Source of the DNA: a bacterium
GTDB lineage: Bacteria; Eisenbacteria; RBG-16-71-46
Assembly: GCA_046076045.1 (NCBI GenBank)
Contig: JBJTRI010000119.1
Location: 1,014-65,013 of the forward strand
DNA: 64,000 nucleotides
Reading direction: 5' to 3'
The notes beneath the pieces were generated by a model. It was not told the DNA's origin. It worked only from the letters and a program-made list of their open reading frames with translations, and did no database searches. The translations under genes were made by a program, and so were the position numbers. Shown here piece after piece: positions 611-64,000 of this stretch; the first letter of the stretch is position 1; the number at the start of each line of letters is the position of its first letter.

Positions 611-623
611 CCCCGAGGACCCG

Positions 624-3142: not shown

Positions 3143-3165
3143 CCGAAACGCTCGAGCCCCCACCC

Positions 3166-4764: not shown

Positions 4765-4796
4765 CGGACGCGAGGCGCGTCCCGGAGGTCTCCCCG

Positions 4797-11711: not shown

Positions 11712-11760
11712 CGCCCCGCCGTGGCGCCCCGCGAGGCGCTGTGCTAACCCTTGAGGTCGC

Positions 11761-14713: not shown

Positions 14714-14790
14714 CCCTGCTCGCGCCCCGTTCCTAGACTCGCGCGGTTCGCACCCGTGGGTGCGGACCTCCATCCCTTCCCGAGGACCCG

Positions 14791-15804: not shown

Positions 15805-15823
15805 GCGGAGTCCCGACCCGGTC

Positions 15824-21177: not shown

Positions 21178-21256
21178 CGCCGCGCTCTGGCGCCGCGGCC
21201 ACGGCGCGGTTAGCGTGCCGTGCATCCACCGACCGTCCCCGAACCCGGAGCCCCCG

Positions 21257-22802: not shown

Positions 22803-24859
22803 TCAGTGCGTGGCGAGCACGCGCAGCGAGCGCGGCGCGAGCCGGTCGTGCATCGGGTCGGGCAGCGGACGCGACTGCTCGATCGGCGTGAAGTCCTCGG
22901 GCGCGGCACTCGCGGTGTCGGCGATGAGGTGCCAGTGGCCGCCGCGCCCGGGCTCGGGCGTGGTGAAGTGCTGCGGTTGGGCCGTCCCGTTCACCTGCAG
23001 CAGGAAGTCCGGGTCGCCGTCGCCGTGCACGTGCATCTGCAGCATGAGGCCACCCGCGTCCCAGTCGGGCGGGCCGAGGATCGGACCGTGCCAGCTCACG
23101 CCGTCGGCGCCGGTCGAGCGGTACCAGCCCTCGCCGCGCAGCACCTTGTACTCGCGCCGCAGTCGCATGAGGCCCGCCACGAAGCGCTGGAACGCGGCCT
23201 CGTCGGGGCTGGCGTCCCAGTCGAGCCACCACGCCGGGCCGTCGTGGCACCACGCGTTGTTGTTGCCGCGCTGCGAGCGCAGGCGATCGTCGCCCCACAG
23301 CCAGAGCACCGCGCCGCGCGACAGCAGGGTGAGGGCGGCGGCGTTGCGCGCCTGACGCAGGCGCACGCCGAGCACCGCCGGGTCGTGCGTCGGGCCCTCG
23401 GCGCCCCCGTTCCAACTGCGGTGGTGGTCGCTGCCGTCGCGTTCCTGCTCGCCGTTCGCGAGGTTGTGCTTGCGCTCGTGGCTCACGAGGTCGGCGAGCG
23501 TGAAGCCGTCGTGGCAGGTCACGAAGTTCACCGAGTGCCCCGGGCGCCGGTCGGGCGCGAACCGGTCGGAGGAGCCGCCGAGCCGGGTGGCGAGCGCGCC
23601 GGGGCACCGCCGTGCCCGCGCAGCCAGTCGCGCACGTCGTCGCGGAAGTGGTCGTTCAACTCGGCCCACCGGCCGTGGTGCGGGAAGCGGCCGCCGTGGT
23701 ACACGCCGGTGTCCCACGGCTCGGCGATGAGCTTGCAGTGCGCGAGCAGCGGGTCCTCGGCGATCGCGCGCACGAGCGGCGGGTCGGCGAGCGGGGTGCC
23801 GTCGGGGCCGCGCGTGAGCGTCGAGGCGAGGTCGAAGCGGAACCCGTCCACGTGCATCTCGTGCGCCCAGAACCGCAGCGCGTCGAGCACCATGCGCGAG
23901 CCGTGCTCCGAGGCGCACGCGAACGTGTTGCCGCAGCCGGTGTGGTCGCGGTCGCGCCCGTCGGCGTCGAGCAGGTAGTAGCTCGCGCGGTCGAGCCCGC
24001 GCCAACTGCGCGGCGGTTCGGTGCGTGAGCCCTCGCCAGTGTGGTTGAACACCACGTCCAGGATGACCTCGAGCCCGACGCGGTGCAGCGCGCGCACCAT
24101 GTCGCGGAACTCCCGCAACGCCCCGGCCGCGGTGGCGTCGGCGGCGTACGCGGTGCGCGGCGCCATGAACGCGAGCGGCGCGTAGCCCCAGACGTTGAGC
24201 AGCGGCTCGCCCGTGAGCGGGTTCGTGCGCGGGTTGTCGGTCTCGTCGAACTCGGCGACCGGCATGAGCTGCACCGCCGTGAAGCCCATCGCGGCCAGCC
24301 ACCCGGCCTTCTCCGCGAGGCCCGCGAACGTGCCGGGGTGCGCGACGCGCGAGCTCGGGTGCGCGGTGAACGCACGCACGTGCGTCTCGTGGATCACGGT
24401 GTCGCCGAGCGGCGTGCGCGGCGCGCGGTCGTCGCCCCAGTCGTAGGCCAGGTCCACCACGACCGAGCGCAGCACGCGCGGGCCGCCGCGCTCGGGTCGC
24501 TCGCCCCAGCGCTCGGAGCCCGCCACGCCGTGCGCGTACGGGTCGAGCAGGAGGGCGTCGGGGTCGAACGCGTGCTCGGGACCGCGCACGTCGGAGTCGG
24601 AGCGCCACGCGTACTCGGCGCCTGCGGCGAGCCCGGGTACGAACGCGTGCCAGACGTCGCCGGTGCGGTGGCGCGCCGGGGCGAGCTCGAACTCGCGTAC
24701 CGCGCGGCCGCCGGGTGCGAACAACGCGAGCGTCAGACGCGTGGCGTGGCGCGAGACGACCGCGAAGTTCACGCCAGCCCGCGTGAGCGTGGAGCCGAGC
24801 GGCTCGGCGGAGCCGGGCTCGACGCTCAGCGCACTCGGGGGCGGGACGGGATCGGCCAT
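22803..24859 (-). CDS. glgX: Glycogen debranching enzyme GlgX / isoamylase (GH13), reading frame interrupted by an apparent 1-nt frameshift near 23590-23600
   Basis: Two overlapping minus-strand ORFs (23528..24859 and 22803..24608) together give a colinear GlgX: N-terminal CBM48-like region, catalytic GH13 motifs (GFRFDLAS, EPWD) and C-terminal domain. The shift sits in a CCCC/GGGG run inside GHGGAP/PGALATRLGGSSD. Confidence 0.7.
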
Positions 24860-24934
24860 GCGGGACGGGACCTCGGGGAGTGGGGGACGCCGCAGGTTAG
24901 CGCGTCCTGCGCCCGACGCCCAAGCCGGCCGCGC

Positions 24935-36041: not shown

Positions 36042-36908
36042 TCACTTGCGCTTGGTCGTCCACTCCGCGAGCAGCTTCTCGCTGTCCGCGACCGCCTGCG
36101 CCATGTTGGGGTCGGCCTTGCCGAGGTCGATGGCCTTGCGCATGAGCGTGACCGCGGTCGCGGTGTCGCCCTTCTTCGCGGCCATCTTGGCGAGCAGCTG
36201 CTGCGTCTGCCAGTTCTCCTTCACCTTGCCGGCCGCCGCCGCCCACGTCGCGGCCTCATCGGCGGCGAGCCCGGCGTCGAACGCCCACGAGGCGGCGCGG
36301 TACGGCGTGCGCCAGTCGTCGGGCTTGGCGGCCGCGATCGCGGCGCGTGCGGCGACCAGCGCCTGCGCGTTCGTGTCCATGGTGATGCGCACGCGCACGG
36401 CCACCTTCTCCCAGCGCAACTGGAGCGTGGTCGCGTCCATGCCCGGGTCGTCGAACGTGAACGACAGGCGCTCGGTGAGCTCGGCCGCGGCCGGCTTCAC
36501 GGTGACGCGCAACACGTCGTTCTTGGGGTCGTAGCCCATCGCGCCCCACATGTCCTTCTGGCTCGAGAACACCACCACCCAAGAGTCCTGCCCGGGGATG
36601 GTCACGAGCGCATAGTCGCCGGCTGCGAGCTTCTGGCCCTCGACCATGATGTCGGTGCTGTTCGTGAAGCGCGTCGCCTCGTTCGCGCCGGTGCGCCACG
36701 GCTCGCCGTAGGGCACGAGACCGCCCCAGATGGTGCGCCCCTTCACGCCGGGGCGGGAGTAGGCGACCGAGAGCTCGGTGAGGCCGACGGTCTGCGTGAC
36801 CTTGGCCTTGGGGCTCGCGGCCGGCGCGGCGAACTGGGCGCGGGCCGAGGGCGCGAGGACGAGCAGCAGGGCGCAGAGCGGGAGACGGAGCAGGTACGGG
36901 ATCCGCAT
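36042..36908 (-). CDS. Secreted DUF2911-like protein with C-terminal TPR-like helical region
   Basis: Signal peptide (MRIPYLLRLPLCALLLVLAPSARA) and the conserved GEPWRTGANEAT motif that I associate with DUF2911; the family assignment is from memory. Confidence 0.6.
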   Translation of the reverse strand: MRIPYLLRLPLCALLLVLAPSARAQFAAPAASPKAKVTQTVGLTELSVAYSRPGVKGRTIWGGLVPYGEPWRTGANEATRFTNSTDIMVEGQKLAAGDYALVTIPGQDSWVVVFSSQKDMWGAMGYDPKNDVLRVTVKPAAAELTERLSFTFDDPGMDATTLQLRWEKVAVRVRITMDTNAQALVAARAAIAAAKPDDWRTPYRAASWAFDAGLAADEAATWAAAAGKVKENWQTQQLLAKMAAKKGDTATAVTLMRKAIDLGKADPNMAQAVADSEKLLAEWTTKRK

Positions 36909-37183
36909 GGGAGAGGTCTCCGTGGAGTTCGGGTTCGTCGGGTGGTCCACCGCCGATCGGCGGGGGGGCCCGTGGGGCGGCGGGGGACGCTACCAGAAGG
37001 CCCGGAGGGGTGCGAGACGGGGCGAGTCCCGGGACCCGATGCGGCATCGAAGGGTAGTGAGAACGGGAATTCCCATGCTCCCGCTCGGCCGCGCACGCTA
37101 CTATCCCCACGCTTCCCGGCGCCTCCCCCCGGCGCCATCCCGACGACCTGCCTTGCCCACCCACGACCCTCCCGGGAGGCCCC

Positions 37184-37693
37184 ATGTCCTTTCGCAGCAT
37201 CCTGCCCGCGGCCGTGTTCCTGGCCCTGATCGTCCCCGTAGCGGTGTCCGCCTGTTCGGACCCCGCGGCCCATGCTGCCGGCGCCTCGGCGCCCCACCTG
37301 AGCCTCGCGGCGAACCACCCGCTGCTCGCCCTGCGCCCGCGTGCGTGGATGCCCGCCTCGCACCGTGTCGCGGTTCAGCGCGCCGCGGCCGGCCTGCGCG
37401 TCGCCGTGGACCCGGTGGACGGCACGCTCGGCATGCCGGCGCCCGAGCCCGCGGCGGAGTTCGTGCAGGTGGACGACGGCGAGCCCATCGTGGTGCGGAC
37501 GCGGCGCGACGGTTCGCGCTGGGCGGTGCTCGACGAGCGCTTCGCCGAGTTCTCGGTCGCCACGATCGGCCCCGACGGCAAGTTGTCGTGGACCTGCGTC
37601 TCGGGGCCGCGCAACGCCGCGCGCTTCCTCGCGAACCCGGTCGTGACCCCGGATCGCGCCCCGGCCCCCGGCACCGTGTGGGAGGACCGCTGA
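37184..37693 (+). CDS. Hypothetical lipoprotein/secreted protein
   Basis: Signal peptide with a possible lipobox (VAVSAC). 169 aa, high GC3, and immediately followed (2-nt gap) by the protease gene. No recognisable domain. Confidence 0.5.
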   Translation: MSFRSILPAAVFLALIVPVAVSACSDPAAHAAGASAPHLSLAANHPLLALRPRAWMPASHRVAVQRAAAGLRVAVDPVDGTLGMPAPEPAAEFVQVDDGEPIVVRTRRDGSRWAVLDERFAEFSVATIGPDGKLSWTCVSGPRNAARFLANPVVTPDRAPAPGTVWEDR

Positions 37694-37695
37694 CC

Positions 37696-39384
37696 ATGCG
37701 CACGATCCTCCGCCGACTCGCCCCGGCCGCCCTGCTCGCGCTGCTCGCCGCACCCGTGCACGCCGCGGCCACCATCACCATCGTGAACATGGACGGCGCG
37801 CTCGAGGGGTTCAACGACCCGACGATCGTCGCGCCCGTCGGGGGCAACCCCGGCACCACGCTGGGCCAGCAGCGCCTGAACGCGTTCCAGCGCGCCGCCG
37901 ACATCTGGGCCACGTACATCGACTCGCCGGTGCCCATCCTCATCCAGGCCGCGTTCAACCCGCTCACCTGCACCGCGACCTCGGCCACGCTCGGCTCCGC
38001 CGGGCCGCGCTTCGCCGAGATCAACCACCCGAACGCCGAGTTCCCCAACTACTGGTACCACGAGGCGTTGGCCAACAAGCAGGCGGGTGTGGACCTCACG
38101 CTCCCCGGTGAGGCCAGCCCGACCGACAACGGCAGCGACATCAACGCGCAGTTCAACTCCAACATCGGCACCACCGGTTGCCTCGAGGGCCGGGGCTGGT
38201 ACTACGGCTACGACGGCAACGAGGGCAACAACATCGACCTCGTCGTGGTGCTGCTGCACGAGTTCGCGCACGGGCTCGGGTTCAGCAACCTCACGAGCGG
38301 TTCGTCGGGCAACTTCTTCAACGGCAGCCCGGCGGTGTTCGACAAGTTCCTCTACGACGAGACCACCGGCCTGCACTGGGACCAGATGGCGCTCGCCTCA
38401 CAGCGCCAGACCTCGGCCATCAACACCAACAACCTCGTGTGGGACGGCATCCACACCTCGGTGGCGGGCAACCAGACGCTCGCGGCGTCCCCCGAGATGG
38501 TGGCGCCCTACGGCACCGTGCTCGGCAACGCCGCCGCCTTCGGGCCGGCGTTCACGAACACCGGTGTGATCGGGCAGGCGGTGCTCGCGGTGGACGCCGT
38601 CGCGCCCACCGGGGACGCGTGCTCGTTGCCGGCCTCGCTCGCGGGTCAGATCGCGGTCGTCGACCGTGGGACCTGCAGCTTCAACATCAAGGTGAAGTTC
38701 GCGCAGGACGCCGGTGCGATCGCGGTCATCCTGGTGAACAACGTCGCCGGCACGTTCTCGCCGGGCGGCACCGACCCGACCATCACCATCCCGACCATCG
38801 CCATCACGCAGGCCGACGGCAACACGCTCAAGGCGGCGATCGCGGCCGGACCGGTCACCGTCACGCTGCGCCGCAGCCCCACCGCGCGCGCCGGCGTGCA
38901 CCCGAGCGGGCGTGTGCGCATGTACGCGCCGAACCCGTTCCAGTCGGGCTCGAGCGTCTCGCACTTCGACGTCTCGCTCACGCCCAACGCGCTCATGGAG
39001 CCGAGCATCAACGCCGACCTCGGTAGCGGGATCGACCTCACGCAGGCGCTGTTCCGCGACATCGGCTGGATCCCCAGCCTGCTCGACGCTCCCGGTCGCA
39101 CGCCGTCGGGCACGGTCGCGCTCGCGAGCCGGCCCAACCCGGCGCGCGGTGGGGCGAGCGTGCGCTTCGAGCTGCCGTCCGAGGAGTCGCTCACGCTCGT
39201 GCTCCACGACGTCGCGGGGCGCGAGGTCCGCACGCTCGCGAACGGGCGGTTCGAGGCCGGAGCGCACGACGTGCGCTGGGACGGGCTCGACGCCGCCGGC
39301 CGCCCGGCCGCGCCGGGGGTCTACATGGCGCGCCTGAAGGGCAGCCGCACGCAGGTCACGCGCGCGATCGTGCTGGTGCAGTAG
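37696..39384 (+). CDS. Secreted zinc metallopeptidase-like protein (HExxH) with PA domain and C-terminal FlgD-Ig/T9SS-type sorting domain
   Basis: Signal peptide; HEFAHGLGF zinc-binding motif (resembling the leishmanolysin/M8-type HExxHxLGF); PA domain (QIAVVDRGTCSFNIKVKFAQDAGAIAVILVNN); C-terminal roughly 80-aa beta-sandwich ending GVYMARLKGSRTQVTRAIVLVQ. GGAGGA SD. Confidence 0.7.
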   Translation: MRTILRRLAPAALLALLAAPVHAAATITIVNMDGALEGFNDPTIVAPVGGNPGTTLGQQRLNAFQRAADIWATYIDSPVPILIQAAFNPLTCTATSATLGSAGPRFAEINHPNAEFPNYWYHEALANKQAGVDLTLPGEASPTDNGSDINAQFNSNIGTTGCLEGRGWYYGYDGNEGNNIDLVVVLLHEFAHGLGFSNLTSGSSGNFFNGSPAVFDKFLYDETTGLHWDQMALASQRQTSAINTNNLVWDGIHTSVAGNQTLAASPEMVAPYGTVLGNAAAFGPAFTNTGVIGQAVLAVDAVAPTGDACSLPASLAGQIAVVDRGTCSFNIKVKFAQDAGAIAVILVNNVAGTFSPGGTDPTITIPTIAITQADGNTLKAAIAAGPVTVTLRRSPTARAGVHPSGRVRMYAPNPFQSGSSVSHFDVSLTPNALMEPSINADLGSGIDLTQALFRDIGWIPSLLDAPGRTPSGTVALASRPNPARGGASVRFELPSEESLTLVLHDVAGREVRTLANGRFEAGAHDVRWDGLDAAGRPAAPGVYMARLKGSRTQVTRAIVLVQ

Positions 39385-39460: not shown

Positions 39461-42340
<2,880 letters not shown>

Positions 42341-42717
42341 CGAGGGTTCTCCGGGGGGCGGTCGCGAGCAGGTCCGTGTGGCCACTCGCGAACGGGGCCG
42401 TTCCACGGCGCCGGGTGAGCGACCGCGGGGGACGGGTGTGGACCGGACGCCGGGGGCGCCGGGGTGGACCGGACCGCGACCCGAGCGCGGTCGGGCACGC
42501 ACGGCCCACCGCTCCCCGGGACGCGGGGATACCCCGAGGTCTTCGGCACGCGAGGGGCAGCGCTTGAGCACCGAGGGGTCCTCGTGCATGGTGGGGGCGT
42601 AGGAGGGCCCCCAGACCCGGTCGGACCGGGTCTGGCCCGCCCCTCCGCGCGGTCCCTCCACCCGGGATGGGCCGCCCCGGACCGTCCCGGTCCGTCCCAG
42701 CCCCCCTCGGAGTCCCG

Positions 42718-44013
42718 ATGCCCTTCGCCTCACTGGGTCTGCCCGCCGCCCTGCTGCGCGGCGTCCGCGCCGCCGGTTACCAGACCCCCACCCCGGTCCA
42801 GGCCCGGGCCATCCCGCTCGTGCTCGAGGGGGGAGACGTGGTCGCCGCCGCCCAGACCGGCAGCGGCAAGACCGCCGCCTTCGTGCTGCCCATCCTCGCC
42901 CAGTTGCTCGACCGCCCGCGCGCGCTGCGGGCGCTGGTGCTCGCGCCCACCCGCGAGCTCGCCGCCCAGATCGAGACCGCGGCCCGTGACCTCGCGCGCT
43001 TCACCAAGCTCAAGGTGGGAGTGGTGCACGGTGGCGTGAACATCGGCCCGCACGAGCGCATGCTGCGCGGCGAGGGCGTGGACATGCTGGTCGCCACGCC
43101 GGGCCGCCTGCTCGACCTGTATGGTCGGCAGAGCGTGGTGTTCGACGACATCGAGGTGCTCGTGCTCGACGAGGCCGACCGCATGGTGGACATGGGGTTC
43201 GCGCCCGACCTGAAGCGCATCCTGTCGCTGCTGCCCGACGACCGGCAGACGCTGCTGTTCTCGGCCACCATGCCGCCGGCGCTCAACGACGTGGCCAAGC
43301 AGGCGCTCTACGATCCGGTGCGCGTGGACCTGGCCCCGCAGACGCGGCCCGCGGCCGGCATCACGCAGGCCGTCTACCCCGTGTCGCGACCGCTCAAGAC
43401 CGACCTGCTCGACACCCTGTTGCGGCGCACCCCGACCGACGGCGTCATCGTGTTCGCACGCACCAAGCGCGGTGCCGAGCGACTCGCGCGACAGCTCGAG
43501 AAGCGCGGGCACGCGGTGGCCGCGCTGCACGGGGACCGCTCGCAGTCGCAGCGCGAGCGCGCGCTGCGCGACCTCAAGCGCGGGCGCGTCGAGGTGCTGG
43601 TCGCCACCGACATCGCCTCGCGCGGCATCGACGTCGAGGACCTCACGCACGTCATCAACTACGACGTGCCGGTGACGCCCGAGGACTACGTGCACCGCAT
43701 CGGTCGTACCGGGCGCGCGGATGCCACCGGTGACGCGTTCACGCTCATGTCGCCCGAGGAGGACCGCGACATGAAGGCGATCGAGCGCTTCATCGGTCGC
43801 AGCATCGCGCGCGTCACCCTGCCCGACTTCGACTACCGCAAGGCCCCGACGCCGCAGGGTGGCGAGGACCGCGGTGGGCGCGGGGGGAGCGGTGCGCGCG
43901 AGCACGGCTCGGTGTCGCGTCCGGCCGCCCCGGCAACGCCCGCGGCGCCCTCGGGTCCGGTGCACGGTCGGCGCCCGAAGCGCGAGGCTCCCGGCGGCCG
44001 TCGTCGTCGCTGA
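42718..44013 (+). CDS. DEAD-box ATP-dependent RNA helicase (RhlE-like)
   Basis: Q-motif ([13 protein letters not shown]), [18 protein letters not shown] and HRIGRTGR motifs, plus an Arg/Gly-rich C-terminal tail. Confidence 0.85.
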
Positions 44014-54370: not shown

Positions 54371-55807
54371 ATGTCCCGTTCCTTGATCCTCGCGCTCCTG
54401 CTGTTCGCGGCCATGCCCGCGGTCGCCGCCGGTCCGTCGTCGGGGCCGCCCCCCGCGTCGCCGTTCACCACCGCGCAACTCGACCACGCGCGCGCGTTGC
54501 GCGAGCGCGCCCTCGAGGACGACACGGCCTACGAACTGCTGCGCTCGCTCACGAGTCGCGTCGGCCCTCGCTTCGCGGGTAGCCCGGGGGACTCGGCCGC
54601 GGTGGCGTGGGCGGTCGCGACGTTGCGCGGCCTCGGGTTCAGCGCGGTGCGCACCGAACCCGTGCGCGTCCCGCGCTGGGTACGAGGCGACTGCCGCGTC
54701 GAGACCGTGTCGCCGTGGCCGCAGCGACTCGTCGCCGAGGCGCTCGGCGGCAGCGTGGCCACGCCCGAGGGTGGGATCGAGGCCGAGGTGGTGGGCGTGC
54801 GCGACCTCGACGAGCTCATGCGCGGGGACAGCACGCGATTCGCGGGGCGCATCGTGTTCGTGCAGCGCCGCATGGAGCGCAGCGCGGACGCCTCGGGCTA
54901 CGGGCCCGCCGTGGCCGGACGCACGCGCGGTGCGGCCGAGGCCGCGCGCCGCGGGGCGGTCGCGGTCGTCATCCGCTCGATCGGCACCGACGACGACCGC
55001 GTCGCGCACACGGGCGCGATGCGCTATGAGCCCGGCGTGCCGCGCATCCCGGCGCTCGCGCTCTCGAACCCCGACGCCGACCTGCTCGGTGAGCAACTCG
55101 CCTCGGGCGCCCCGGTCCGCATGCGGCTGCGCGACTCGTCGAGGTGGGCCGACAGCACGTGGTCGGCGAACGTCATCGGCGAGATCCCGGGGCGCGAACG
55201 TCCGAACGAGGTGGTGGTGCTGGGCGCGCACCTCGACTCGTGGGACCTGGGGACCGGCGCACACGACGACGGCGCCGGCGTCTGCATCATGACCGGTGCC
55301 GCGCGGCTCATCGCGCAGGCTCCGCTGCGCCCGCGCCGCACCGTGCGCGTGGTGCTGTTCGCCAACGAGGAGTTCGGGCTGAGCGGCGCGCGCGACTATG
55401 CCCGCACCCATGCCAGCGAGGCCGCGCTGCACGTGCTCGGCATGGAGTCCGACCTCGGCGCGTTCCGCCCGCTCGGCTTCCGCTCCCGCGTCGCCGACGA
55501 GTACCTGCCCGCGATGCGCGCCATCCACTCGCTGCTGTCGCCGCTCGGCGTCGAGTATCGCGGCAACGATGCGACCGGGGACGCCGACGTGGGGCAGCTG
55601 GTGCCGCTCGGCATCCCGGTGTGCGACCTCGACACCGATGCGAGCACGTACTTCGACCTGCACCACACCGCCAACGACACGTTCGACAAGGTGGACCCCG
55701 AACTCGTGCGCCGGAACGTGGCGTGCTACGCGGTCATCGCGTGGTTGGCCGCCGACCTGTCCGGCGGTCTGGGGCGACTCCCGGTCAGTCCTTCGCCCGC
55801 TCGCTGA
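54371..55807 (+). CDS. Secreted M28-family zinc aminopeptidase with PA-like insert
   Basis: Signal peptide. M28 metal-ligand motifs (LGAHLDSWDLGTGAHDDGAGV; FANEEFGLSGA). Confidence 0.75.
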   Translation: MSRSLILALLLFAAMPAVAAGPSSGPPPASPFTTAQLDHARALRERALEDDTAYELLRSLTSRVGPRFAGSPGDSAAVAWAVATLRGLGFSAVRTEPVRVPRWVRGDCRVETVSPWPQRLVAEALGGSVATPEGGIEAEVVGVRDLDELMRGDSTRFAGRIVFVQRRMERSADASGYGPAVAGRTRGAAEAARRGAVAVVIRSIGTDDDRVAHTGAMRYEPGVPRIPALALSNPDADLLGEQLASGAPVRMRLRDSSRWADSTWSANVIGEIPGRERPNEVVVLGAHLDSWDLGTGAHDDGAGVCIMTGAARLIAQAPLRPRRTVRVVLFANEEFGLSGARDYARTHASEAALHVLGMESDLGAFRPLGFRSRVADEYLPAMRAIHSLLSPLGVEYRGNDATGDADVGQLVPLGIPVCDLDTDASTYFDLHHTANDTFDKVDPELVRRNVACYAVIAWLAADLSGGLGRLPVSPSPAR

Positions 55808-56696
55808 GCGTGCGCGAGGCCCCGCGCGTGATGGCCTGCACGGCGGGATGGTGCACGCGCCGCTCGGTCGTGATGGCGTAGAACGACTCGCGGCAGTCGC
55901 CGGCTCGTCCGAGAGCGCGCAGTCCCCAGCGCTCGCGGGCCTCGCGGAGCGTGGCGGCGGGCAGCGGCAGGAACCCGAGCCCGTCGGCCGCGGCCATCTT
56001 CATGAGTGCGCGGTCGTCGTACTCGGCCACCACGCGCGGGGTCACCCCACGGTCGCGGAACCACGGTTCGAGCGTGCGCCGCAGTGCGGAGCCGGCTGCG
56101 GGCAGGAGCGCGGGGGCGTCCTCGAGCGAGCGGGGGAAGCGGGGCTTGAGCCGGGCCGCCAGTCGCGCGGTGGCGCAGAACACGATGGCGGACGACCCGA
56201 GCAGGTGGTGTTGCGTGCGCACGGGGGACGAGCTGGGTGCGGGCTCGTCGGCGAGCACGAGGTCGAGCCGGAACGCCGCGAGTTCGCCGAGCAGGTCGGC
56301 GACCGGGCCCTCGTGGCACACGAGCTGGACCTGCGCGGCGGCGGTGAACGCGGGTCGCAGCAGATCGTGGCACAGGCTCTTCGGGAGTGAGTCGGTGATC
56401 CCGACCGCGAGTCGCAGCGGGGCGTCCCCGGTCGGGGTGCGGAGGGTCGCCTGCAACTCGTCCCCGAGCGCGAAGATCTCGTCCCCGTAGCGGCACACCC
56501 GAGCGCCCGCTTCGGTGAGCGCGAGCCCGCGGCCCGCGCGCCGGAACAGCTTCTCGCCGAGGGCGTCCTCGAGCGCCCGGACCTGGGCGGACACGGTGGG
56601 CTGGGAGACGTGCAGTCGCTCGGCGGCGGCCCGCACGCTGCCCGTCCGGGCGACCGTCCAGAAGTAGCGCAGGTGATGGAAGTTGAGGGGCTGCAT
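55785..56696 (-). CDS. LysR-family transcriptional regulator
   Basis: N-terminal wHTH (LRYFWTVARTGSVRAAAERLHVSQPTVSAQVRALE) and a C-terminal LysR substrate-binding domain. Its 3' end overlaps the M28 gene's 3' end by 23 nt. Confidence 0.85.
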   Translation of the reverse strand: MQPLNFHHLRYFWTVARTGSVRAAAERLHVSQPTVSAQVRALEDALGEKLFRRAGRGLALTEAGARVCRYGDEIFALGDELQATLRTPTGDAPLRLAVGITDSLPKSLCHDLLRPAFTAAAQVQLVCHEGPVADLLGELAAFRLDLVLADEPAPSSSPVRTQHHLLGSSAIVFCATARLAARLKPRFPRSLEDAPALLPAAGSALRRTLEPWFRDRGVTPRVVAEYDDRALMKMAAADGLGFLPLPAATLREARERWGLRALGRAGDCRESFYAITTERRVHHPAVQAITRGASRTLSERAKD

Positions 56697-57214
56697 AGGG
56701 GGGCAGCCTAGACCAGAGCCCGCCCTGCCGCACTCCCGGGTCCGGCCTGCGTCCACCATGCGTTCCGCAACGGGTCGTGCGGTTCGACGGGCACCCCGGA
56801 CCCGGGAGGGAGGGGGCCGGGCGGCGCGGGTTGGCAATGCCATGAAACCGCTTGGGAGCGCGCCTCGGCGAGGGCTATCCTTTCGAGCGTGTGGTGTTCC
56901 GACCGGAGCCCGCACGGATTCCACATATACATACACCCGACCGGCCGTCACCCCCCTCCGCCACGGCCCGGTTCGAAGTGAACCATGCGTGCGCCTCACC
57001 GCGCCGCCGGGGTCACCCTGCCATGCACCTGCGCCGATCCCACGACCTCGTGTCGGTCCGCGCCATCGCCCGGAGGGGCGCGATGGCGTGTCTCGTGTGT
57101 GCCCTCCGCGAGACCCGCCCGCTCCGCGCCGCGCGATCCCTTTCGCAACTGCGATCCGTTGCCGCCCCCTGCATCACTCCCGCCCACTCGCGTCACCACT
57201 CCCCTGGAGCATCC

Positions 57215-58024
57215 ATGCGTAACCTCACCCTGACCCTCGCGATCGCAGCGTTGTCGTGGCTCGCCGTTCCGGCGCAGGCCGCCGTCACCGCCGCACTGGT
57301 CCCCGCCAACCAGACGGTGACGCCGGGCAGCGACTTCGACGTCTTCTTCGACGTCACGGCGGCCGGCTCGAGCTTCAACGGTATCGACCTGGTCGTGTCC
57401 TGGGATCCGGCTCGGCTCACGCTGCTTCCGACCTCGCCCACGACGGCGCAGCAGGGCTGCCTCATGACCGGCACCTGCAGCGCATCGTGCGGCAGCACGT
57501 TCCATCGCTTCTCCACCGCGGCCGACAGCGCGGTGGCGACGAGCGTGATGCTCTGCAACGGCGTCTCGCTCACCGGCCCCGGGCGGCTCTACAAGCTCCG
57601 GTTCCGCGCCGCCAACGTGGTCGCGGCCACCGCCATCACGGTCCGTCGCGCCAGCTTCTACAACGCCGGTCTCACCGTGAGCCCGGTCAGCTCCGCGGGC
57701 TGCAACGTCGGGATCGGTGTCACGACCGGCGTCGAGGACGGGGTGCGCCCCGGCCTGCGCCTCCTGCGCGTCGAGCCCAACCCTGCGCATGGCCGCGTGC
57801 AGTTCCGCTCCGAGGACGACCACGCCGGGCTCGTCGCGGCCGAGGTGCTCGACCTCCAGGGCCGCGTGCGCCATCGCATGGCACCGGTCTGGGTGGGAGC
57901 GCGTGGTGGGTTCACGTGGGACGGCCGCGACCTCGACGGCGGCCGCCTGCCCGCCGGGCTCTACCTCGTGCGCATCCGCCGCGGCGGCAGCGATCAGACC
58001 CATCGGGTGACGCTGCTCCCGTGA
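57215..58024 (+). CDS. Secreted cohesin-like domain protein with C-terminal FlgD-Ig/T9SS-type sorting domain
   Basis: Signal peptide. A roughly 150-aa beta-sandwich region fits the cohesin pattern (TVTPGSDFDVFFDVTAAGSSFNGIDLVVSWDPARLTLL...RLYKLRFRAANVVAATAITV). The C-terminal tail reads LRVEPNPAHGRVQFR...VLDLQGRV...WDGRDLDGGRLPAGLYLVRIRRGG...RVTLLP. Its stop overlaps the next start (GTGA). Confidence 0.6.
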   Translation: MRNLTLTLAIAALSWLAVPAQAAVTAALVPANQTVTPGSDFDVFFDVTAAGSSFNGIDLVVSWDPARLTLLPTSPTTAQQGCLMTGTCSASCGSTFHRFSTAADSAVATSVMLCNGVSLTGPGRLYKLRFRAANVVAATAITVRRASFYNAGLTVSPVSSAGCNVGIGVTTGVEDGVRPGLRLLRVEPNPAHGRVQFRSEDDHAGLVAAEVLDLQGRVRHRMAPVWVGARGGFTWDGRDLDGGRLPAGLYLVRIRRGGSDQTHRVTLLP

Positions 58025-58077
58025 CGAACACCCTCGTGCATCGGCTCCGCGACGCGCAGCGCGCGATCCGCGAGTGG

Positions 58078-61000
58078 GTGGCCCCGCGGCCGCTCACTCG
58101 GGCTCGTGCGTGCGCGGCGGTGCTCGCGTGCACGATGGTCGCCAGCGCTGCGCACGCGCAGACGCTGCGTCCCGACTTCCAGATCACGAACGGGCAGGTG
58201 AACGCGCAGGTGCTGCGCGGCGACACGCTCTACGTGGGTGGCAGCTTCTCCTTCGTCGGTCCCGTCACGGGCGCGGGTGTGCCGGTGGACACGGCGACCG
58301 CACAGCCCCTCGTGGGCTTCCCTGCGGTGAACGGTTCGGTGTTCGCGGCCGTCTCGGACGGTGCGGGCGGGTGGTACCTCGGCGGCCAGTTCACCGCGGT
58401 CGGCAGCAGCCCTCGCAGCAACCTCGCCTACGTGCTCGCCGACGGCAGCGTGTCGTCGTGGAACCCGGGTGCGAACGGCGCGGTGCGTGCCCTGGCGCTG
58501 CGCTCGGGCGTGCTCCACTGCGGTGGCGACTTCCTCTCGCTCGGCGGCGTGCTGCGCAATCGCATCGGTGCGGTGAGCGCCTCGACGGGCGCGGTGCAGG
58601 CTTGGAACCCGAACGCCAACGCCACCGTGCGTGCGCTCGTCGAGGGCGCGACCGGGGTCTACGTGGGCGGCCAATTCACCTCGATCGGTGGTCAGGTGCG
58701 CAATCGAGTGGCGCTGCTCTCGTTCGCCACCGGTGCCGCGGACGCGACCTGGAACCCGAACGCGAACAGCACGGTGAATGCGCTCCACCTCCATGCGGCC
58801 TCGGGTACGGTCTACGCGGGTGGTCAGTTCACCGCGATCGGTGGCCAGCTCCGCAATCGTGCCGCGGCGCTCGATGCCGTCACCGGTGTCGCCCGTGGCT
58901 GGAATCCCAACGTGGCCGCGACCGTCAACGCGATCGCGGCCGACGCCGCCACCGTGTACCTGGGTGGTTCGTTCACCTCGGTGGGCGGGCAGGCGCGCAG
59001 CCGCATCGTCGCGATCGACGCTTCGACCGGCCTGCCGACCGCATGGAACCCGAACGCCGGCAACACGGTCCAGACGATTCTCCTGAGCGGCGCGACCCTC
59101 TACGTGGGCGGCGACTTCCTCGCGGTGGGCGGCGAGGCGCGCAGCCGCCTCGCCGCACTCTCCACCGCGACCGGGCTTGCGACCGCGTGGAACCCGAGCG
59201 CGTTCGGCACCGTGTCCGTGCTGCAGTTCGACGGATCGCGTCTGTTCGTGGGCGGTTCGTTCAACGGGCTCGGCGGTGTGGCGCGCAACAACCTCGCCGC
59301 CTTCGACGTCACGACCGGCCAGGTCACCGCGTGGAACCCCGACGCCAACAACCAGGTCCAGGCGCTCGCGCTCTCGGGCGACACGCTCGTCGTGGGCGGT
59401 AACTTCACCTCCGTCGCGGGCCAGGTGCGTAACGGTGCTGCGGCCGTGCATGCGATCACCGGTGCGCTGCACGCGTTCGACCCCAACGTGGGCGGTCAGG
59501 TCAGCGCCATCGCGGTGGCGCTCCCGCGCGTCTACCTGGGAGGGCTGTTCGGGACGGTCGGGGGGCAGGTGCGCGTCAACCTCGCCGCGGTGAACTCGGC
59601 CACCGGTGCGGTCGAATCGTGGACCGCCGACACGGACGACCAGGTGTTCGCGATCGAGCCCACCGCGCAAGGCGTGCTCGTGGGTGGCAACTTCACCTTG
59701 TTGTCGGGCGTCGTGCGCGGGTTCATCGGCGCGCTCGACCCCGTCTCGGGGGCCGCGACCGCGTGGATCCCCGACGCGAACGGCACCGTGCGCACGATCG
59801 CCGCCGGATGCGACCGCATCTACGCCGGCGGCTTCTTCACGAGCATCGGTGGGCAGTCCCGCAACCGCGCAGCGGCGCTCAACCGCAGCAACGGCCAGGC
59901 GTTGTCGTGGGATCCCAACCTGAACGGTCCGGTATTCGCGCTCATGCCGCGTCCGGGCACGGTCTACCTGGGTGGCGTCTTCAGCACGGTGGGTTCGACC
60001 GCGCGCAATCGCATCGCTGCCGTGGACCCGGTGAGTGCCGCGGTCACGGCATGGAACCCCAACTCGAACGGCACGGTGCGCAGTGTCGTGGTGGGGAATA
60101 GCGAGGCTTACGCGGGCGGACTGTTCTCCACCATGTCGGGCGCACCGTCGGGTAACCTCGCGGCCTTCCCCTCGGATGCGAGCCTGCCCTGTGCCACCAT
60201 CGGCCTACCTTCGGGCCCGATCTCGACCGCGGTGGTCGGGGGTGCGGTCGCACACTCGTTCCCGGCCAGCGGTGGCACGTCACCCTATTGCTATCGCGTC
60301 TCGTCGGGGACATTGCCGACCGGGCTCTCGCTCGACCCCTCGACCGGTTCGGTCACGGGCACGCCGCTCACCTCCGGCACGTTCTCGTTCTCGATCACCG
60401 CGACCGACGTGCGCGGCTGCACGGGCACCGTGGCGCTGACGTGGGCGGTGGCGCCCACGCCGGCTTCGAACGGTGTGGCGCCCGTCACCACCGGGTTGTG
60501 CCTGAACCCCGAGGTGTCGGTGGTGCAGGTGCCGTTCTCGCTCGTGCGCGGGGACACGCTCGCGCTGCGCTCGGTGAGCGTGACGTTCCAGGTCGACACC
60601 ACGCGCCTTCGGCTGCCGACGGCGGGCCCCGCATCGGCGCACGTCAGCGCCGGGGCGTGGGGAGCGGCGTTCCCGAACCGCACGCTGCAGGTCACCGAAC
60701 TCGGCGGCGGCCGCTACACGGTCGAGGTCGCACTCACCGGTGCGCCGTGCGGGGTCACGACGGGCGGCACGCTGTTCTCGGTCGCGCTCGCAGCTCAGGG
60801 CCCGAGCGGGGTCGCCGCGGTGAGCCTGGTCGCGATCGGAGCCCAGGACTGCGCTGGCGTGCCGGTCGGGCTCAACATGGGGGCGGCGGGTGGCGTGAAC
60901 GTTTCCACGTCGCCGATCGCGGTCTCGCCGGACTCGCTGCCGGTCGCGATCGCTGGCGGGGCCTACGCCGTCTCGTTCTCCGCGACCGGTGCCAGTGGGC

Positions 61001-64000
61001 CGCTCACCTGGACGGTCGCATCCGGTGCGCTTCCCGCAGGCCTGACGCTGTCCTCGGCCGGCGTGCTCGCGGGCACGCCGACGGCCTCGGGCACGTTCCC
61101 GCTGGTGATTCGCGCCACCGAGGCCGCGGGTTGCCGGGGCTCGCTCGCCTGCACGCTCACCGTGGCCTGCCCGACCATCGCGCTCACGCCCGCGTTGCTG
61201 CCGGACGGCTCCGTGGGCGCGGCCTACTCCGCCACGCTCGGTGCGGTCGGGGGCGTCGCCCCGTTCACGTATGCGGTGACCGCGGGCTCGCTGCCCGCGG
61301 GACTCACGCTGTCGGAGGCAGGTGCGATCTCGGGCACCCCGAGCGCGGTCGGCACGTCCATCCTGACCATCACCGCGACCGATGCGGCCGGTTGCACCGC
61401 GACGATCGAGCACCTCGTGGACGTGTACGCCACGGTGCCGCTCTCGACGGTGCGGGCCGTGTCGCTGGGGCAGGCCCTCACCAGCGCGCGCTCGCGCGTG
61501 ACGGTGCCCTTCACCTACACGCGCGGCGAGAGCGACAGCGTGCGCGGCGTGACGGTGTCGTTCCAGACCGACCCCACGCGGGTCGCCTTGAACGACACGA
61601 TGACCGCGGCGATCCGACTCGGCGACTGGACCGCGGGGTACCCGAACACGAACCTGCAGGTGGTCCAGGACGGCCCTGACGCGTGGACGGTGGACGTCAT
61701 CCTGCTCGGCGGGTCGTGCGGCATCACGACCGGGGGCACGTTGTTCACCGTGGACCTGCGTTCGGTGGGGCCGGACGGCCCCGCGCCGATCGTAGTGACG
61801 CGCGTGAAGGCCCGTGACTGCGGCAACCTGCCGGTGCCGGTGCGCGCCGGTGCGATCGACACGCTGCGTGTGCAGAACACGGACCTCGCGCTCACGCCGG
61901 CGACGCTGCCCAACGGCGAGGTCGGCGCGGCCTACTCGGTCGCACTGGGTGCGTCGAACGCGCGCACGCCGCTGACGTTCGCGCTCGTCTCGGGTGCGTT
62001 GCCGCCGGGGCTCGCGCTGTCCTCGTCGGGTGTGCTCACCGGGCTGCCCACGACGAGTGGGGCCTACTCGTTCACGGTCTCGGCAGCGGATGCCGACAGT
62101 GTGCCGGGCCAGCGCGTCTTCGTGCTCACGGTCGCGTGCCCGGTGCTGGTGCTCGACCCGGCGCTGCTCGCCGACGCTCGTGTGGGCGCGTCGTACTCGG
62201 ACTCGATCGCGGTGCTCAACGGCATCGGCCCGTTCGCGTTCACGCTCGTCGAGGGTGTGTTGCCCAGCGGCCTCGCGTTGTCCCCGACCGGCGCGATCTC
62301 GGGCGTGCCGACCGCTCCGGGCTTCCACATCTTCACGCTCGGTGCCACGGGCGGGTCGGGTTGCACGGGGCAGGAGACCTACACGATCAACGTGTTCGCC
62401 GACTCGGCCGTCTCGCGCATCGTGGCCCGCACGCAGGGGCTCTGTCTCACGCCCTCGAACCCGTGCGTCACCGTGCCGTTCGTCTACGAGCGAGCGGACA
62501 CCATGCCCGCACGACTCGTGCACGTCGAGTTCGAGCTCGACGCCCGCTTCGCGCTGTGCACGCCGGCCGCGCCGTACTCGAGCATCCGCGAGGGGACATG
62601 GGCGGGGGGCGCGAGCACCGTGTTCCAGGTGATGTCGCTCGGCGCCAACCGCTACGGGGTGGACCTGGCGATCCTCGGTGAGCCGTGCGGCCCCGACTCG
62701 ACCGTCGTGTTGTTCACGGTGGACGTCGCCGCGGTCGGCGGGGACGGCGTGGGCGACCTGGTCGTGACCGATGCGCGTGTGCGCGACTGCGACAATCAGC
62801 CGATCCCGGTCGAGTCCGGTTCGACCGCGGCGCTGGTGGTGACCAGCACGCTGCCGCCCGCGATCGCGGATCTATCGGTGACGCGCGTGACCTCGGGGAA
62901 TGGCACCTCGGGCCGCATCGGGTTGTTGGTGTCGTGGACGCCGCCGCTCGAGGGCGTGGTGTCCCTCTACCGTGCGCCATTCGGAAGCTATCCCGAGTAC
63001 GACGATGCCGGTGGCGTGACGCCCGACTCCGCACTCGCCCCCGGCGCGCCGTGGACGCTGGTCTCGGCCGCGGCGAGCCCGGGCTTGGTGGACCTGCCGC
63101 CGGTGCGTGGCGTGTGGCACTACCTCGCATTCGTGACGGACTCGTGCCAGATGCGCTCCGCGCCCTCGAACCTCACGCCCGGTCGGCCGAACTACCAACT
63201 CGGTGACGTGAGCGACGGCGCCGTGCGCGGCCAGGGCGACAACCTCATCCGGGTCGAGGACGTGTCATTGCTCGGCGCGCACTACGGGCGCACGGGGGCT
63301 GCGATCGCGGCCGCGAACGTGGCGTACCTCGACGTGGGCCCGACGGTGGACGGGACGCCGGACAGTCGTCCGGTCACGGACGACGTGATCGGGTTCGACG
63401 ACCTGATGCTGTTCTCGCTCGGCTTCGAGTCGGTGTCGTCGCCCGCGATGCGCGCGCGTCCCGCCGCGAGCCCCGAGCGTGCGGAGGCCACCGAGTCGTT
63501 CGAGGTGTTCGCGCCTTCGCGGGTCGCCGCCGGCGACGAGGTGGTGGCCGAACTGCGACTCGACGCCCGCGGCGGCCTGCAGGGCTTCGCCGTGCAGCTG
63601 GCGTGGGACGAGGGCGTGCTGGAGCCGCTCGGGTCCGAGTCCGGCGGGCTGGCCGAGTCCCAGGGCGGCGTGGCCTACCTGCCGCGCCCCGGCGCCGCCG
63701 ATGCGGCACTGCTGGGCGTGAGCGACGTCGGCTTCACCGGTACGGGCGTGGTGGCACGCTACCGCTTCCGTGCGCGCCGAGACGGCGACCCCGCCGTCCG
63801 CATCGCGACGATCGAGGCGCGCGACGCCGCGAACCACTCCGTCCCCGCATCGCGACTGGGCGCGACGCGAGTGCCCGCACCTCCGACGACCACCGTGCTC
63901 CTGTCCCCGGCCCCCAACCCCGCCCGCGGTGCCGCGAACCTGGCGTTCGGACTGGCGCGCCGCGGTCCGGTGGAGTTGACGGTGCTCTCGGTGGACGGCC
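58078..64000 (+). CDS. Giant secreted multidomain surface protein, 3'-truncated by window end (>1,970 aa): signal peptide, about 14 beta-propeller-type repeats, 5 He_PIG Ig domains interleaved with 3 Cys-containing beta-sandwich modules, a dockerin-like segment, a cohesin-like module and the start of a FlgD-Ig/T9SS-type tail
   Basis: Hand translation of the frame starting at GTG 58021 shows no stop codon through 64000 and uniformly high GC3. The ORF is missing from the supplied track because it has no in-window stop. I chose GTG 58078 as the start because it gives a canonical signal peptide (..APRPLTRARACAAVLACTMVASAAHA|QT). Minus-strand ORFs 57994..59670 and 60280..62523 are its antisense shadows. 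Confidence 0.7.
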   Translation, partial: MAPRPLTRARACAAVLACTMVASAAHAQTLRPDFQITNGQVNAQVLRGDTLYVGGSFSFVGPVTGAGVPVDTATAQPLVGFPAVNGSVFAAVSDGAGGWYLGGQFTAVGSSPRSNLAYVLADGSVSSWNPGANGAVRALALRSGVLHCGGDFLSLGGVLRNRIGAVSASTGAVQAWNPNANATVRALVEGATGVYVGGQFTSIGGQVRNRVALLSFATGAADATWNPNANSTVNALHLHAASGTVYAGGQFTAIGGQLRNRAAALDAVTGVARGWNPNVAATVNAIAADAATVYLGGSFTSVGGQARSRIVAIDASTGLPTAWNPNAGNTVQTILLSGATLYVGGDFLAVGGEARSRLAALSTATGLATAWNPSAFGTVSVLQFDGSRLFVGGSFNGLGGVARNNLAAFDVTTGQVTAWNPDANNQVQALALSGDTLVVGGNFTSVAGQVRNGAAAVHAITGALHAFDPNVGGQVSAIAVALPRVYLGGLFGTVGGQVRVNLAAVNSATGAVESWTADTDDQVFAIEPTAQGVLVGGNFTLLSGVVRGFIGALDPVSGAATAWIPDANGTVRTIAAGCDRIYAGGFFTSIGGQSRNRAAALNRSNGQALSWDPNLNGPVFALMPRPGTVYLGGVFSTVGSTARNRIAAVDPVSAAVTAWNPNSNGTVRSVVVGNSEAYAGGLFSTMSGAPSGNLAAFPSDASLPCATIGLPSGPISTAVVGGAVAHSFPASGGTSPYCYRVSSGTLPTGLSLDPSTGSVTGTPLTSGTFSFSITATDVRGCTGTVALTWAVAPTPASNGVAPVTTGLCLNPEVSVVQVPFSLVRGDTLALRSVSVTFQVDTTRLRLPTAGPASAHVSAGAWGAAFPNRTLQVTELGGGRYTVEVALTGAPCGVTTGGTLFSVALAAQGPSGVAAVSLVAIGAQDCAGVPVGLNMGAAGGVNVSTSPIAVSPDSLPVAIAGGAYAVSFSATGASGPLTWTVASGALPAGLTLSSAGVLAGTPTASGTFPLVIRATEAAGCRGSLACTLTVACPTIALTPALLPDGSVGAAYSATLGAVGGVAPFTYAVTAGSLPAGLTLSEAGAISGTPSAVGTSILTITATDAAGCTATIEHLVDVYATVPLSTVRAVSLGQALTSARSRVTVPFTYTRGESDSVRGVTVSFQTDPTRVALNDTMTAAIRLGDWTAGYPNTNLQVVQDGPDAWTVDVILLGGSCGITTGGTLFTVDLRSVGPDGPAPIVVTRVKARDCGNLPVPVRAGAIDTLRVQNTDLALTPATLPNGEVGAAYSVALGASNARTPLTFALVSGALPPGLALSSSGVLTGLPTTSGAYSFTVSAADADSVPGQRVFVLTVACPVLVLDPALLADARVGASYSDSIAVLNGIGPFAFTLVEGVLPSGLALSPTGAISGVPTAPGFHIFTLGATGGSGCTGQETYTINVFADSAVSRIVARTQGLCLTPSNPCVTVPFVYERADTMPARLVHVEFELDARFALCTPAAPYSSIREGTWAGGASTVFQVMSLGANRYGVDLAILGEPCGPDSTVVLFTVDVAAVGGDGVGDLVVTDARVRDCDNQPIPVESGSTAALVVTSTLPPAIADLSVTRVTSGNGTSGRIGLLVSWTPPLEGVVSLYRAPFGSYPEYDDAGGVTPDSALAPGAPWTLVSAAASPGLVDLPPVRGVWHYLAFVTDSCQMRSAPSNLTPGRPNYQLGDVSDGAVRGQGDNLIRVEDVSLLGAHYGRTGAAIAAANVAYLDVGPTVDGTPDSRPVTDDVIGFDDLMLFSLGFESVSSPAMRARPAASPERAEATESFEVFAPSRVAAGDEVVAELRLDARGGLQGFAVQLAWDEGVLEPLGSESGGLAESQGGVAYLPRPGAADAALLGVSDVGFTGTGVVARYRFRARRDGDPAVRIATIEARDAANHSVPASRLGATRVPAPPTTTVLLSPAPNPARGAANLAFGLARRGPVELTVLSVDG
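58180..60180 (+). repeat. About 14 tandem 47-48-aa coding repeats (beta-propeller/delta-60-like blades) within the giant ORF
   Basis: Period about 144 nt. Each unit is roughly WNPNANGTV.AL...G.TVYVGGQFTSIGGQ.RNR.AALDA.TG. DNA-level repeats are also visible (tggaacccgaacgcsaac recurs). Confidence 0.7.

Follow-up and report, generated by a model that had tools for sequence, protein, structure and literature searches.

A divergent dockerin-like module beside a cohesin in a fixed C-terminal cassette of secreted proteins from Candidatus Eisenbacteria

Introduction

Can a dockerin and a cohesin be carried side by side at the end of one secreted protein, and would they then bind each other or the modules of other proteins? 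This question is raised by a stretch of 64,000 nucleotides from a bacterium of the Eisenbacteria lineage (hereafter the window; assembly GCA_046076045.1, contig JBJTRI010000119.1, positions 1,014 to 65,013), at the end of which a giant open reading frame (ORF) encodes two Asp/Gly-rich loop-helix units followed by a beta-sandwich module. A sequence-only reading of the window had proposed that the two units form a non-canonical dockerin-like segment, that the module after them is cohesin-like, and that partners in adjacent ORFs would allow oligomeric surface display. Few protein-protein connectors known are as strong as cohesin-dockerin pairs, which are common in synthetic biology and in single-molecule force work. 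Away from the degradation of cellulose, cohesins and dockerins, in some cases both in the same protein, were reportedly described by Peer et al. 2009; these had been found with standard profiles.

What is new in this study is a dockerin subtype missed by Pfam, a fixed Fn3-dockerin-linker-cohesin-tail cassette, the scale of the family that carries it, and a conserved single-cohesin neighbour. In the searchable literature we found no paper linking Eisenbacteria to cohesin, dockerin or type IX secretion, nor was a fixed Fn3-dockerin-cohesin-tail architecture found there for this group.

Results

The giant ORF ends in a cohesin

Frame 0 of the plus strand has no stop between 57223 and the end of the window, and the giant ORF within it encodes at least 1993 aa, starting at ~58021-58078 and leaving the window at 63999. 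All the peptides on which the sequence-only reading had drawn are found in this one frame, namely GDVSDG...LLGAHYG (63202-63288), LDVGPT...FSLGF (63328-63426), FEVFAPSRV (from 63499), and ARYRF...ANHSV (63754-63843). The spacer between ...SLGF and FEVF, which had been given as 17 residues, has 24 (63427-63498). The AlphaFold2 model mentioned below covers 62842-63999 and was built from a 51-sequence alignment, with a mean predicted local distance difference test score (pLDDT) of 89.4 and a predicted template modelling score (pTM) of 0.84. The giant protein and the parts of its C-terminal region, which ends in a domain like those that a type IX secretion system (T9SS) recognises, are as follows.

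58021..63999, plus strand: giant secreted protein, from translation, Pfam and homologues; cut by the window end.
62842..63162, plus strand: Fn3/Ig-like beta-sandwich fused straight onto the dockerin-like module, in the place of the X-module in X-module-dockerin (X-Doc) dyads; AlphaFold strands at model residues 12-99.
63190..63429, plus strand: dockerin-like module; unit 1 at 63202-63288, unit 2 at 63328-63426, short helix between them.
63430..63498, plus strand: Ala/Pro/Ser-rich flexible linker; low pLDDT, model residues 197-215.
63493..63876, plus strand: terminal cohesin module, called type A; from structure, profile and homologues.
63886..63999, plus strand: first part of the FlgD-Ig/T9SS-type C-terminal domain (…LLSPAPNPARG…); incomplete because the window ends here, with homologues extending ~95 aa.

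The Pfam cohesin family PF00963 was not matched at E<=1 by the window's own sequence, either as the segment 63163-63999 or as the whole ORF, and a scan of the window segment with NCBIfam and Pfam together matched neither dockerin nor cohesin. About half of the homologues do match PF00963: 15 of 31 in one set (best 3.5e-10) and 24 of 47 full-length members (best 8.1e-13). Precomputed annotation places PF00963 on P0015, P0017, P0021, P0023, and P0031, and the NCBI name for P0007 is "cohesin domain-containing protein". A profile of 31 homologous modules (A3) matches solved cohesins, among others 3l8q_A (ScaB cohesins; 2.9e-5) and 5g5d_A (1.4e-3). In the structure model the strands of the module lie at residues 218-345 with pLDDT mostly 92-98. 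When the model was compared with the PDB by Foldseek, the best 50 matches were all cohesins with a probability of 1.0, including 1g1k (8.2e-7), Coh-OlpC (4dh2) in second place and 2xdh in eighth (E 2.2e-6); the target-normalised TM scores were mostly 0.5-0.67 against single-cohesin chains. The terminal module is a bona fide cohesin, and this assignment is settled.

The preceding segment is probably a divergent dockerin

The dockerin-like segment is 89 aa long, and its residues are numbered here from 1 at position 63163. In an alignment of 171 module copies, D15, D33, D57, G59, P60, T61, P70, and D73 are invariant (100%) and D80 is kept in 99%. Read as calcium loops, unit 1 has D (100%), D or N (97%), and D (100%) at loop positions 1, 5, and 12, and unit 2 has D at the same positions in 100%, 100%, and 99% of copies, with V or I at position 8 in both units. 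The distance from loop position 1 to 12 spans 19 residues in unit 1 and 24 in unit 2, against 12 in the canonical loop, the insertions being of ~7 residues in loop 1 and of 12-13 in loop 2. The model of the whole C-terminal region places helices at residues 138-146, 152-157 (short), and 185-193, with a long loop before the third, which is the three-helix topology of dockerins, and it has single-residue beta-bridges at I26 and I73, the residues mapping to F-hand position 8. Structure prediction thus returned two Asp-rich loop-helix units in a three-helix arrangement together with a cohesin sandwich, as the sequence-only reading had supposed. When the segment was modelled alone, the same helices were seen with pLDDT down to 65. 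Only three of 350,542 PDB chains were matched by this isolated model in Foldseek, and the two best were dockerins.

Sequence searches with the segment itself gave little. By phmmer against the PDB, the sole match was to light-harvesting proteins at E 0.12, a chance match; a word-indexed profile search with the module returned short fragments of the same family only; and in a six-frame search of the window neither a further dockerin-like module nor the canonical DxNxDGxxD motif turned up.

The link to known dockerins comes from profile comparison against a reference profile of 68 sequences, 2 of them PDB-verified and 66 natural dockerins from a metagenome scan. In the window subfamily (171 sequences), QGDNLIRVEDVSLLGAHYGRTG aligns to dockerin positions 4-25, with a score reached by 0 of 100 column-permuted nulls, and the second unit aligns in the same register, one unit per alignment. 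The bridge to the dockerin family is P0071, which has a shorter first loop (…GDFAGFGDGVVDSTDAAVLAGDYG…) and whose dockerin-like copies are much nearer to canonical dockerins. Its four copies are each recognised as family members (1e-15 to 1e-18), have the same domains around them and align in register with the window module. Compared alone with the dockerin profile, these four copies align through both repeats over 48 columns (84.8% probability, P=6.6e-6) if loop 2 is allowed a single insertion of 12 residues; their HHalign score of 28.2 was reached by none of 150 nulls, the highest of which scored 18.1. P0071 itself is a protein of 2234 aa with FG-GAP repeats, four tandem units of Big_9/cadherin-like, Fn3-like, dockerin-like and weak cohesin-like domains, and then FlgD_ig.

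Model topology, the acidic residues conserved at positions 1, 5, and 12, and the profile link through P0071 all agree with the earlier proposal of a non-canonical loop-helix pair. The Pfam dockerin family PF00404, by which that proposal could be checked, was matched by no member tested, and membership in the dockerin family therefore rests on remote homology. As the canonical motif and the Pfam test both failed, we call the segment a dockerin homologue or variant with expanded calcium loops rather than a standard member, and judge this assignment to be probably correct.

The cassette is fixed across a large family

A profile of the module matched 1,023 cluster representatives (clusters at 50% identity) at E<=1e-3 and 481 at E<=1e-10 with HMMER; almost all of them are from Candidatus Eisenbacteria. 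Searches of GTDB species genomes confirmed 223 loci, nearly all in metagenome-assembled genomes (MAGs) of Candidatus Eisenbacteria and often several per genome; the module of L001 is 91% identical to the query at the protein level, with 87% DNA identity to the window end, which puts the window in this phylum as well. Four loci (L011, L044, L062, and L065) all come from the MAG DATLUU, which is labelled Verrucomicrobiia while nearly all other cassette loci are from Eisenbacteria. DATLUU is probably a mislabelled or mixed bin, horizontal transfer being less likely.

Among the best 150 of the 1,023 matches, which were used for the details of the cassette, the order is always Fn3-like domain, dockerin-like module, linker of 10-38 residues, cohesin, and FlgD-Ig/T9SS-like C-terminal domain. 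The gap between the Fn3-like domain and the dockerin-like module is 0-2 aa in 144 of these 150, and a hidden Markov model (HMM) of the Fn3-like domain matches 169 of the collected family proteins. The linker has a median length of 16 aa and is rich in A (27%), P (13%), and S (10%). From the module to the end of the protein, complete family members have 228-263 aa, apart from two with 277 and 315; shorter distances belong to truncated fragments. In front of this cassette the cargo is varied and adhesin-like, with He_PIG, beta-helix, FG-GAP, NHL, Big_1, and cadherin-like domains.

The C-terminal tails of all 47 full-length homologues match FlgD_ig, 20 match Por_Secre_tail (3.1e-6), and 7 match CHU_C. 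A secreted PA-domain protein at 36763-39384 (plus strand) also has a FlgD_ig tail (9.5e-12) and lacks the Fn3-dockerin-cohesin cassette; therefore the tail would be a general sorting module and the cassette an optional addition to it.

Further cohesin-like modules in the giant protein

The giant ORF has three start candidates (58021, 58036, and 58078), of which 58078 gives a more typical signal peptide of 28 aa. After the signal peptide, which ends in ...AAHA|Q, there follow a beta-propeller (Rax2 and DUF5122 in Pfam), then five He_PIG Ig domains (6.9e-58) between which three cohesin-like modules are placed, and finally the C-terminal cassette. The three internal modules contain Cys and are called type B:

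60433..60915, plus strand: type-B cohesin-like module, copy 1; type-B HMM independent E-value (iE) 2.6e-32.
61429..61887, plus strand: type-B cohesin-like module, copy 2; type-B HMM iE 1.7e-35, A3 profile iE 1.7e-4.
62347..62862, plus strand: type-B cohesin-like module, copy 3, directly before the Fn3-like domain; type-B HMM iE 5.7e-50.

In HHalign the type-B profile aligns with the terminal cohesin profile over 90 columns (P=6.5e-5), by which the type-B modules are taken to be distant relatives of the terminal cohesin. The strands of the Fn3-like domain next to copy 3 have mostly high pLDDT, with one 10-residue block at 62. In the consensus of the 47 full-length members a type-B module is kept upstream of the Fn3-like domain, and the conserved cassette may therefore comprise five modules rather than four.

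A single-cohesin gene lies directly upstream

A small gene precedes the giant ORF:

57215..58024, plus strand: protein of 269 aa with a signal peptide, a single cohesin and a FlgD-Ig/T9SS-CTD-like tail (CTD, C-terminal domain).

Its orthologues match PF00963 in 14 of 22 cases (best 6.8e-7) and FlgD_ig in all 22, while in the window copy the FlgD_ig and Por_Secre_tail matches are below threshold. Of the models for the T9SS type A sorting domain (TIGR04183, PF18962), TIGR04183 gives the window copy 20 bits (E 5e-4), the cut-off being 23. The profile of the small protein (A8) matches the C-terminal domains of PorU (6za2_A, residues 1047-1135; 4.4e-6) and of PorZ/PG93 (5m11_A, residues 662-746; 5.6e-6), and FlgD more strongly (2e-10). 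Against the terminal cohesin profile, the small-protein profile gave P=0.002 over 87 columns in HHalign. The upstream gene had been said to carry the same L.V.WDP..L motif as the terminal module; it does have DLVVSWDPARL, but the terminal module reads QLAWDEGVL, which is similar and not identical.

The stop codon of the small gene (TGA, 58022-58024) overlaps the first start candidate of the giant ORF (GTG, 58021) as GTGA, which suggests translational coupling of the two genes if 58021 is the true start. In 31 of 67 Eisenbacteria loci an orthologue of the small gene follows directly after a cassette gene, starting ~815-1090 nt past the dockerin-like module and thus just beyond the expected end of the cassette gene. 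At least eight loci (L020, L030, L032, L035, L038, L047, L051, and L067) have the order cassette gene A, small cohesin gene, orthologue of the giant propeller gene (62-68% identity). Gene A is missing from the window, where a divergently transcribed LysR-like regulator stands in its place. This LysR-type regulator (…NFHHLRYFWTVARTGSVRAAAERLHVSQPTVSAQVRALE…; 55785-56999, minus strand) was identified by eye from its translation and is separated from the small cohesin gene by an intergenic region of ~500 nt.

Other genes of the window

A surface-polysaccharide cluster occupies 507-12822 (plus strand) and comprises an epimerase/dehydratase, a Bac_transf sugar transferase, a PMT_2-like protein, UDP-glucose dehydrogenase, three GT4 glycosyltransferases, and a mannose-1-P guanylyltransferase-like protein; it might bear on T9SS-type anchoring to glycan. 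Glycogen/alpha-glucan genes are found at 14737-17356 and 23531-24934 (a GalT-like protein, a starch/glycogen synthase of Glyco_transf_5 type, and a protein with CBM48 and alpha-amylase domains), a DUF4301 protein (2e-150) at 21089-22786, and a large hybrid histidine kinase with a CHASE8 sensor, HisKA, HATPase, two receiver domains and Hpt at 39464-43000 (minus strand). A cellulosome-type operon is ruled out, as the neighbours are housekeeping genes, namely those for ribosomal protein S1, an M28 peptidase, PEPCK, transporters, and polysaccharide synthesis.

Discussion

The arrangement found here is close to that of the type II X-Doc dyads, such as CipA XDoc of C. thermocellum with SdbA/ScaC and ScaA XDoc of A. 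cellulolyticus with ScaB (PDB 4u3s, 2b59, and 5g5d), where an Ig-like sandwich likewise lies N-terminal to a two-unit dockerin of ~60-90 aa and the partner cohesin stands beside a cell-surface anchor. The X-Doc chain 4u3s_B is among the three Foldseek matches of the isolated dockerin-like module, and type II cohesins are the best profile matches of the cohesin. The likeness of the Fn3-like domain to an X-module is one of position, directly abutting the dockerin-like module. Unlike the X-Doc dyads, the dockerin-like module and the cohesin lie here in one polypeptide, 10-38 residues apart, the calcium loops are expanded, and PF00404 is not matched; there are no cellulolytic enzymes, and in this Gram-negative lineage a T9SS-like C-terminal domain takes the place of an S-layer homology (SLH) or sortase anchor.

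A cohesin and a dockerin that recognise each other within one protein have been described in Amy4 of R. bromii (PMC4611034), a secreted protein with a self-complementary pair for which multimers or self-association were proposed. Amy4 is, however, a single enzyme with canonical modules from a Firmicute, whereas the pairing proposed here is putative and concerns a cassette of fixed order, present in more than 1,000 clusters, whose cargo is adhesin-like and not enzymatic. The fold of the terminal cohesin is also like that of the non-cellulosomal cohesin of Archaeoglobus fulgidus (2xdh). Compared with the non-cellulosomal modules of Peer et al. 2009, the dockerin variant of this family escapes Pfam.

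Cloacimonadota and Eisenbacteria both belong to the FCB group of Gram-negative lineages. The single-cohesin scaffoldins OlpA/OlpC of C. thermocellum and ScaE of R. flavefaciens share with the small protein at 57215-58024 a signal peptide, one cohesin and a surface anchor, the anchor being in our case the FlgD-Ig/T9SS-CTD-like domain; by this analogy the small protein resembles an anchoring scaffoldin. In the cloacimonadotal 'Ca. Stygibacter', a cellulosome-like system was proposed in which enzymes carry dockerins and a cohesin scaffoldin has a T9SS C-terminal domain (PMC8542988), so that there, too, a T9SS-type domain at the end of cohesin proteins would fasten them to the surface of the producing cell. 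In contrast to Stygibacter, where dockerins are on enzymes and tandem cohesins on the scaffoldin, each protein here has one dockerin-like module, one terminal cohesin and non-catalytic cargo. The family described here thus carries a fixed cassette in one polypeptide and does not divide enzymes and scaffoldins between separate proteins.

The cassette probably organises surface proteins. The reading that we favour, tentatively and at somewhat less than even chances, is that of a C-terminal surface-display cassette in which the dockerin-like module clasps its own cohesin in cis, with a possible swap between molecules. The giant protein would be exported, probably via a T9SS-like route that recognises the tail, and the cohesin would then be positioned beside the outer-membrane anchor point. 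The Fn3-like domain may steady the dockerin-like module as the X-module does for a type II dockerin, and the dockerin-like module may bind the cohesin encoded 10-38 residues downstream. The compact intramolecular clasp so formed would give a stiffer base to the stalk that bears the variable cargo. As the dockerin-cohesin pair would be self-complementary, the contact could open and swap between molecules. Pairing in cis is favoured by P0071, in whose four repeats every dockerin-like module has one Fn3-like module before it and one weak cohesin-like module after it, by the tight spacing on both sides of the dockerin-like module (a gap of 0-2 aa to the Fn3-like domain and a linker of median 16 aa to the cohesin) with its near-constant distance to the protein end, and by the pLDDT of only 65 for the segment modelled alone. 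The pTM of 0.84 for the three-domain model, obtained despite the low-confidence linker, also points to a defined inter-domain arrangement. The occurrence of the family almost only in Eisenbacteria, in several copies per genome and on varied cargo, and the precedent of Amy4 are in keeping with this reading.

Several results weigh against the clasp or against one of its parts. The canonical calcium loop DxNxDGxxxxxD is absent, with S or T at position 3 of loop 1, G at position 3 of loop 2, and a variable position 9, and because positions 3 and 9 are non-canonical, calcium binding is at most putative. PF00404 was not matched at E<=1 in the window sequence and 31 homologues, nor at E<=0.1 in P0071, and it lies outside the 25 most-matched of 64 families for the 47 full-length members; the profile of the dockerin-like module had no match among PDB sequences at E<=10. 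The two dockerin chains matched by the isolated model in Foldseek, 2y3n_B (E 1.5) and 4u3s_B (E 6.2), are not significant. Without P0071, the window subfamily is weakly matched to the dockerin profile by HHalign (P=0.0027, probability 11%), and the match stays weak when the P0071 copies are added (P=3.6e-4, probability 37%, one unit at a time, 0/100 nulls). No T9SS genes were seen among the window ORFs scanned with Pfam, no search aimed at the T9SS machinery having been made. As far as the model goes, contact in cis would be read from the pTM alone. In a reduced-alphabet direct-coupling analysis, the coupling between dockerin-like module and cohesin did not exceed that between cohesin and tail (0.23%) and was modestly over background, the strongest inter-domain coupling being that of Fn3-like domain and dockerin-like module. 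Cohesin-like modules outnumber the dockerin-like one, with three internal copies and one in the neighbouring gene, and this surplus, together with the synteny of the single-cohesin gene, agrees better with binding in trans.

Binding in trans is a rival to be taken seriously, although we consider it rather unlikely. Here the dockerin-like module would bind the cohesin of the neighbouring gene, the type-B modules or the terminal cohesins of paralogues, giving a surface network of adhesin-like proteins that is cellulosome-like without enzymes. That in 31 of 67 loci the small gene for a cohesin and tail follows a cassette gene, and in at least eight stands between a cassette gene and the giant-gene orthologue, speaks for such a network, as do the GTGA overlap (again if 58021 is the start), the ratio of five cohesin-like modules to one dockerin-like module in the window, the layout of the small protein after the manner of the anchoring scaffoldins OlpC/SdbA with Coh-OlpC as the second-best structural match of the terminal cohesin, and the self-recognition of Amy4, which leads to multimerisation. 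Yet a partner in trans would have to compete with the cohesin that follows each dockerin-like module at a distance of 10-38 residues, and the cassette proteins bear a sorting or anchor tail of their own, so that an anchor protein would be unnecessary. The synteny may moreover reflect one orthologous locus and not a general rule, and partner binding would be deduced from gene order and domain content.

The cassette could also be structural only, the dockerin-like segment being a helical sub-domain that belongs to the Fn3-like domain and that calcium may stabilise, and the cohesin fold a beta-sandwich spacer before the sorting domain. In line with this are the constant fusion of the segment to the Fn3-like domain, its poor prediction in isolation, and the failure of Pfam and PDB sequence searches to see a dockerin. 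Several cohesin-like modules of the giant protein have no dockerin counterpart, and cohesin-like folds without known dockerin partners are said to have been noted outside cellulosomes by Peer et al. 2009. We nevertheless regard a purely structural role as improbable, since dockerin-like module and cohesin remain strictly paired even in the four-fold repeat of P0071, the residues that could bind calcium, at positions 1, 5, and 12 of each loop, are kept in 97-100% of copies, the likeness to true dockerins covers both repeats, and the high multi-domain pTM speaks for a defined arrangement. Practically no weight is left for a chance resemblance or a non-coding artefact. The window has a G+C content of ~73% and is rich in spurious long ORFs, but the frame of the giant protein has homologues at 38-99% identity (P0001 at 99%, and P0002-P0037), and these homologues, the 1,023 cluster representatives of the module and the confident structure model rule out a spurious GC-rich ORF.

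A wider and more speculative picture, which we think unlikely, is that of a phylum-wide cohesin-dockerin system with a new, Pfam-invisible dockerin subtype, expanded calcium loops and an Fn3-like helper. In this picture dozens of T9SS-exported adhesin-like proteins per cell, together with single-cohesin anchors, would interlock through self-complementary cassettes into a self-assembling outer-membrane lattice, a non-enzymatic Gram-negative counterpart of the cellulosome.

In summary, Candidatus Eisenbacteria harbour a natural family of at least 1,023 clusters in which a probable dockerin and a cohesin lie in one polypeptide beside a T9SS-type anchor, the dockerin subtype being one that standard profiles miss. 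If this is true, the sequence space of dockerins widens, with calcium loops that tolerate insertions of 7-13 residues, and a new profile HMM would be justified for proteins whose annotation now reads only "FlgD Ig-like domain containing". The family would also offer a natural test case for cohesin-dockerin binding within a chain versus between chains, and a first point of entry to the functions of the cell surface in the uncultured phylum Eisenbacteria.

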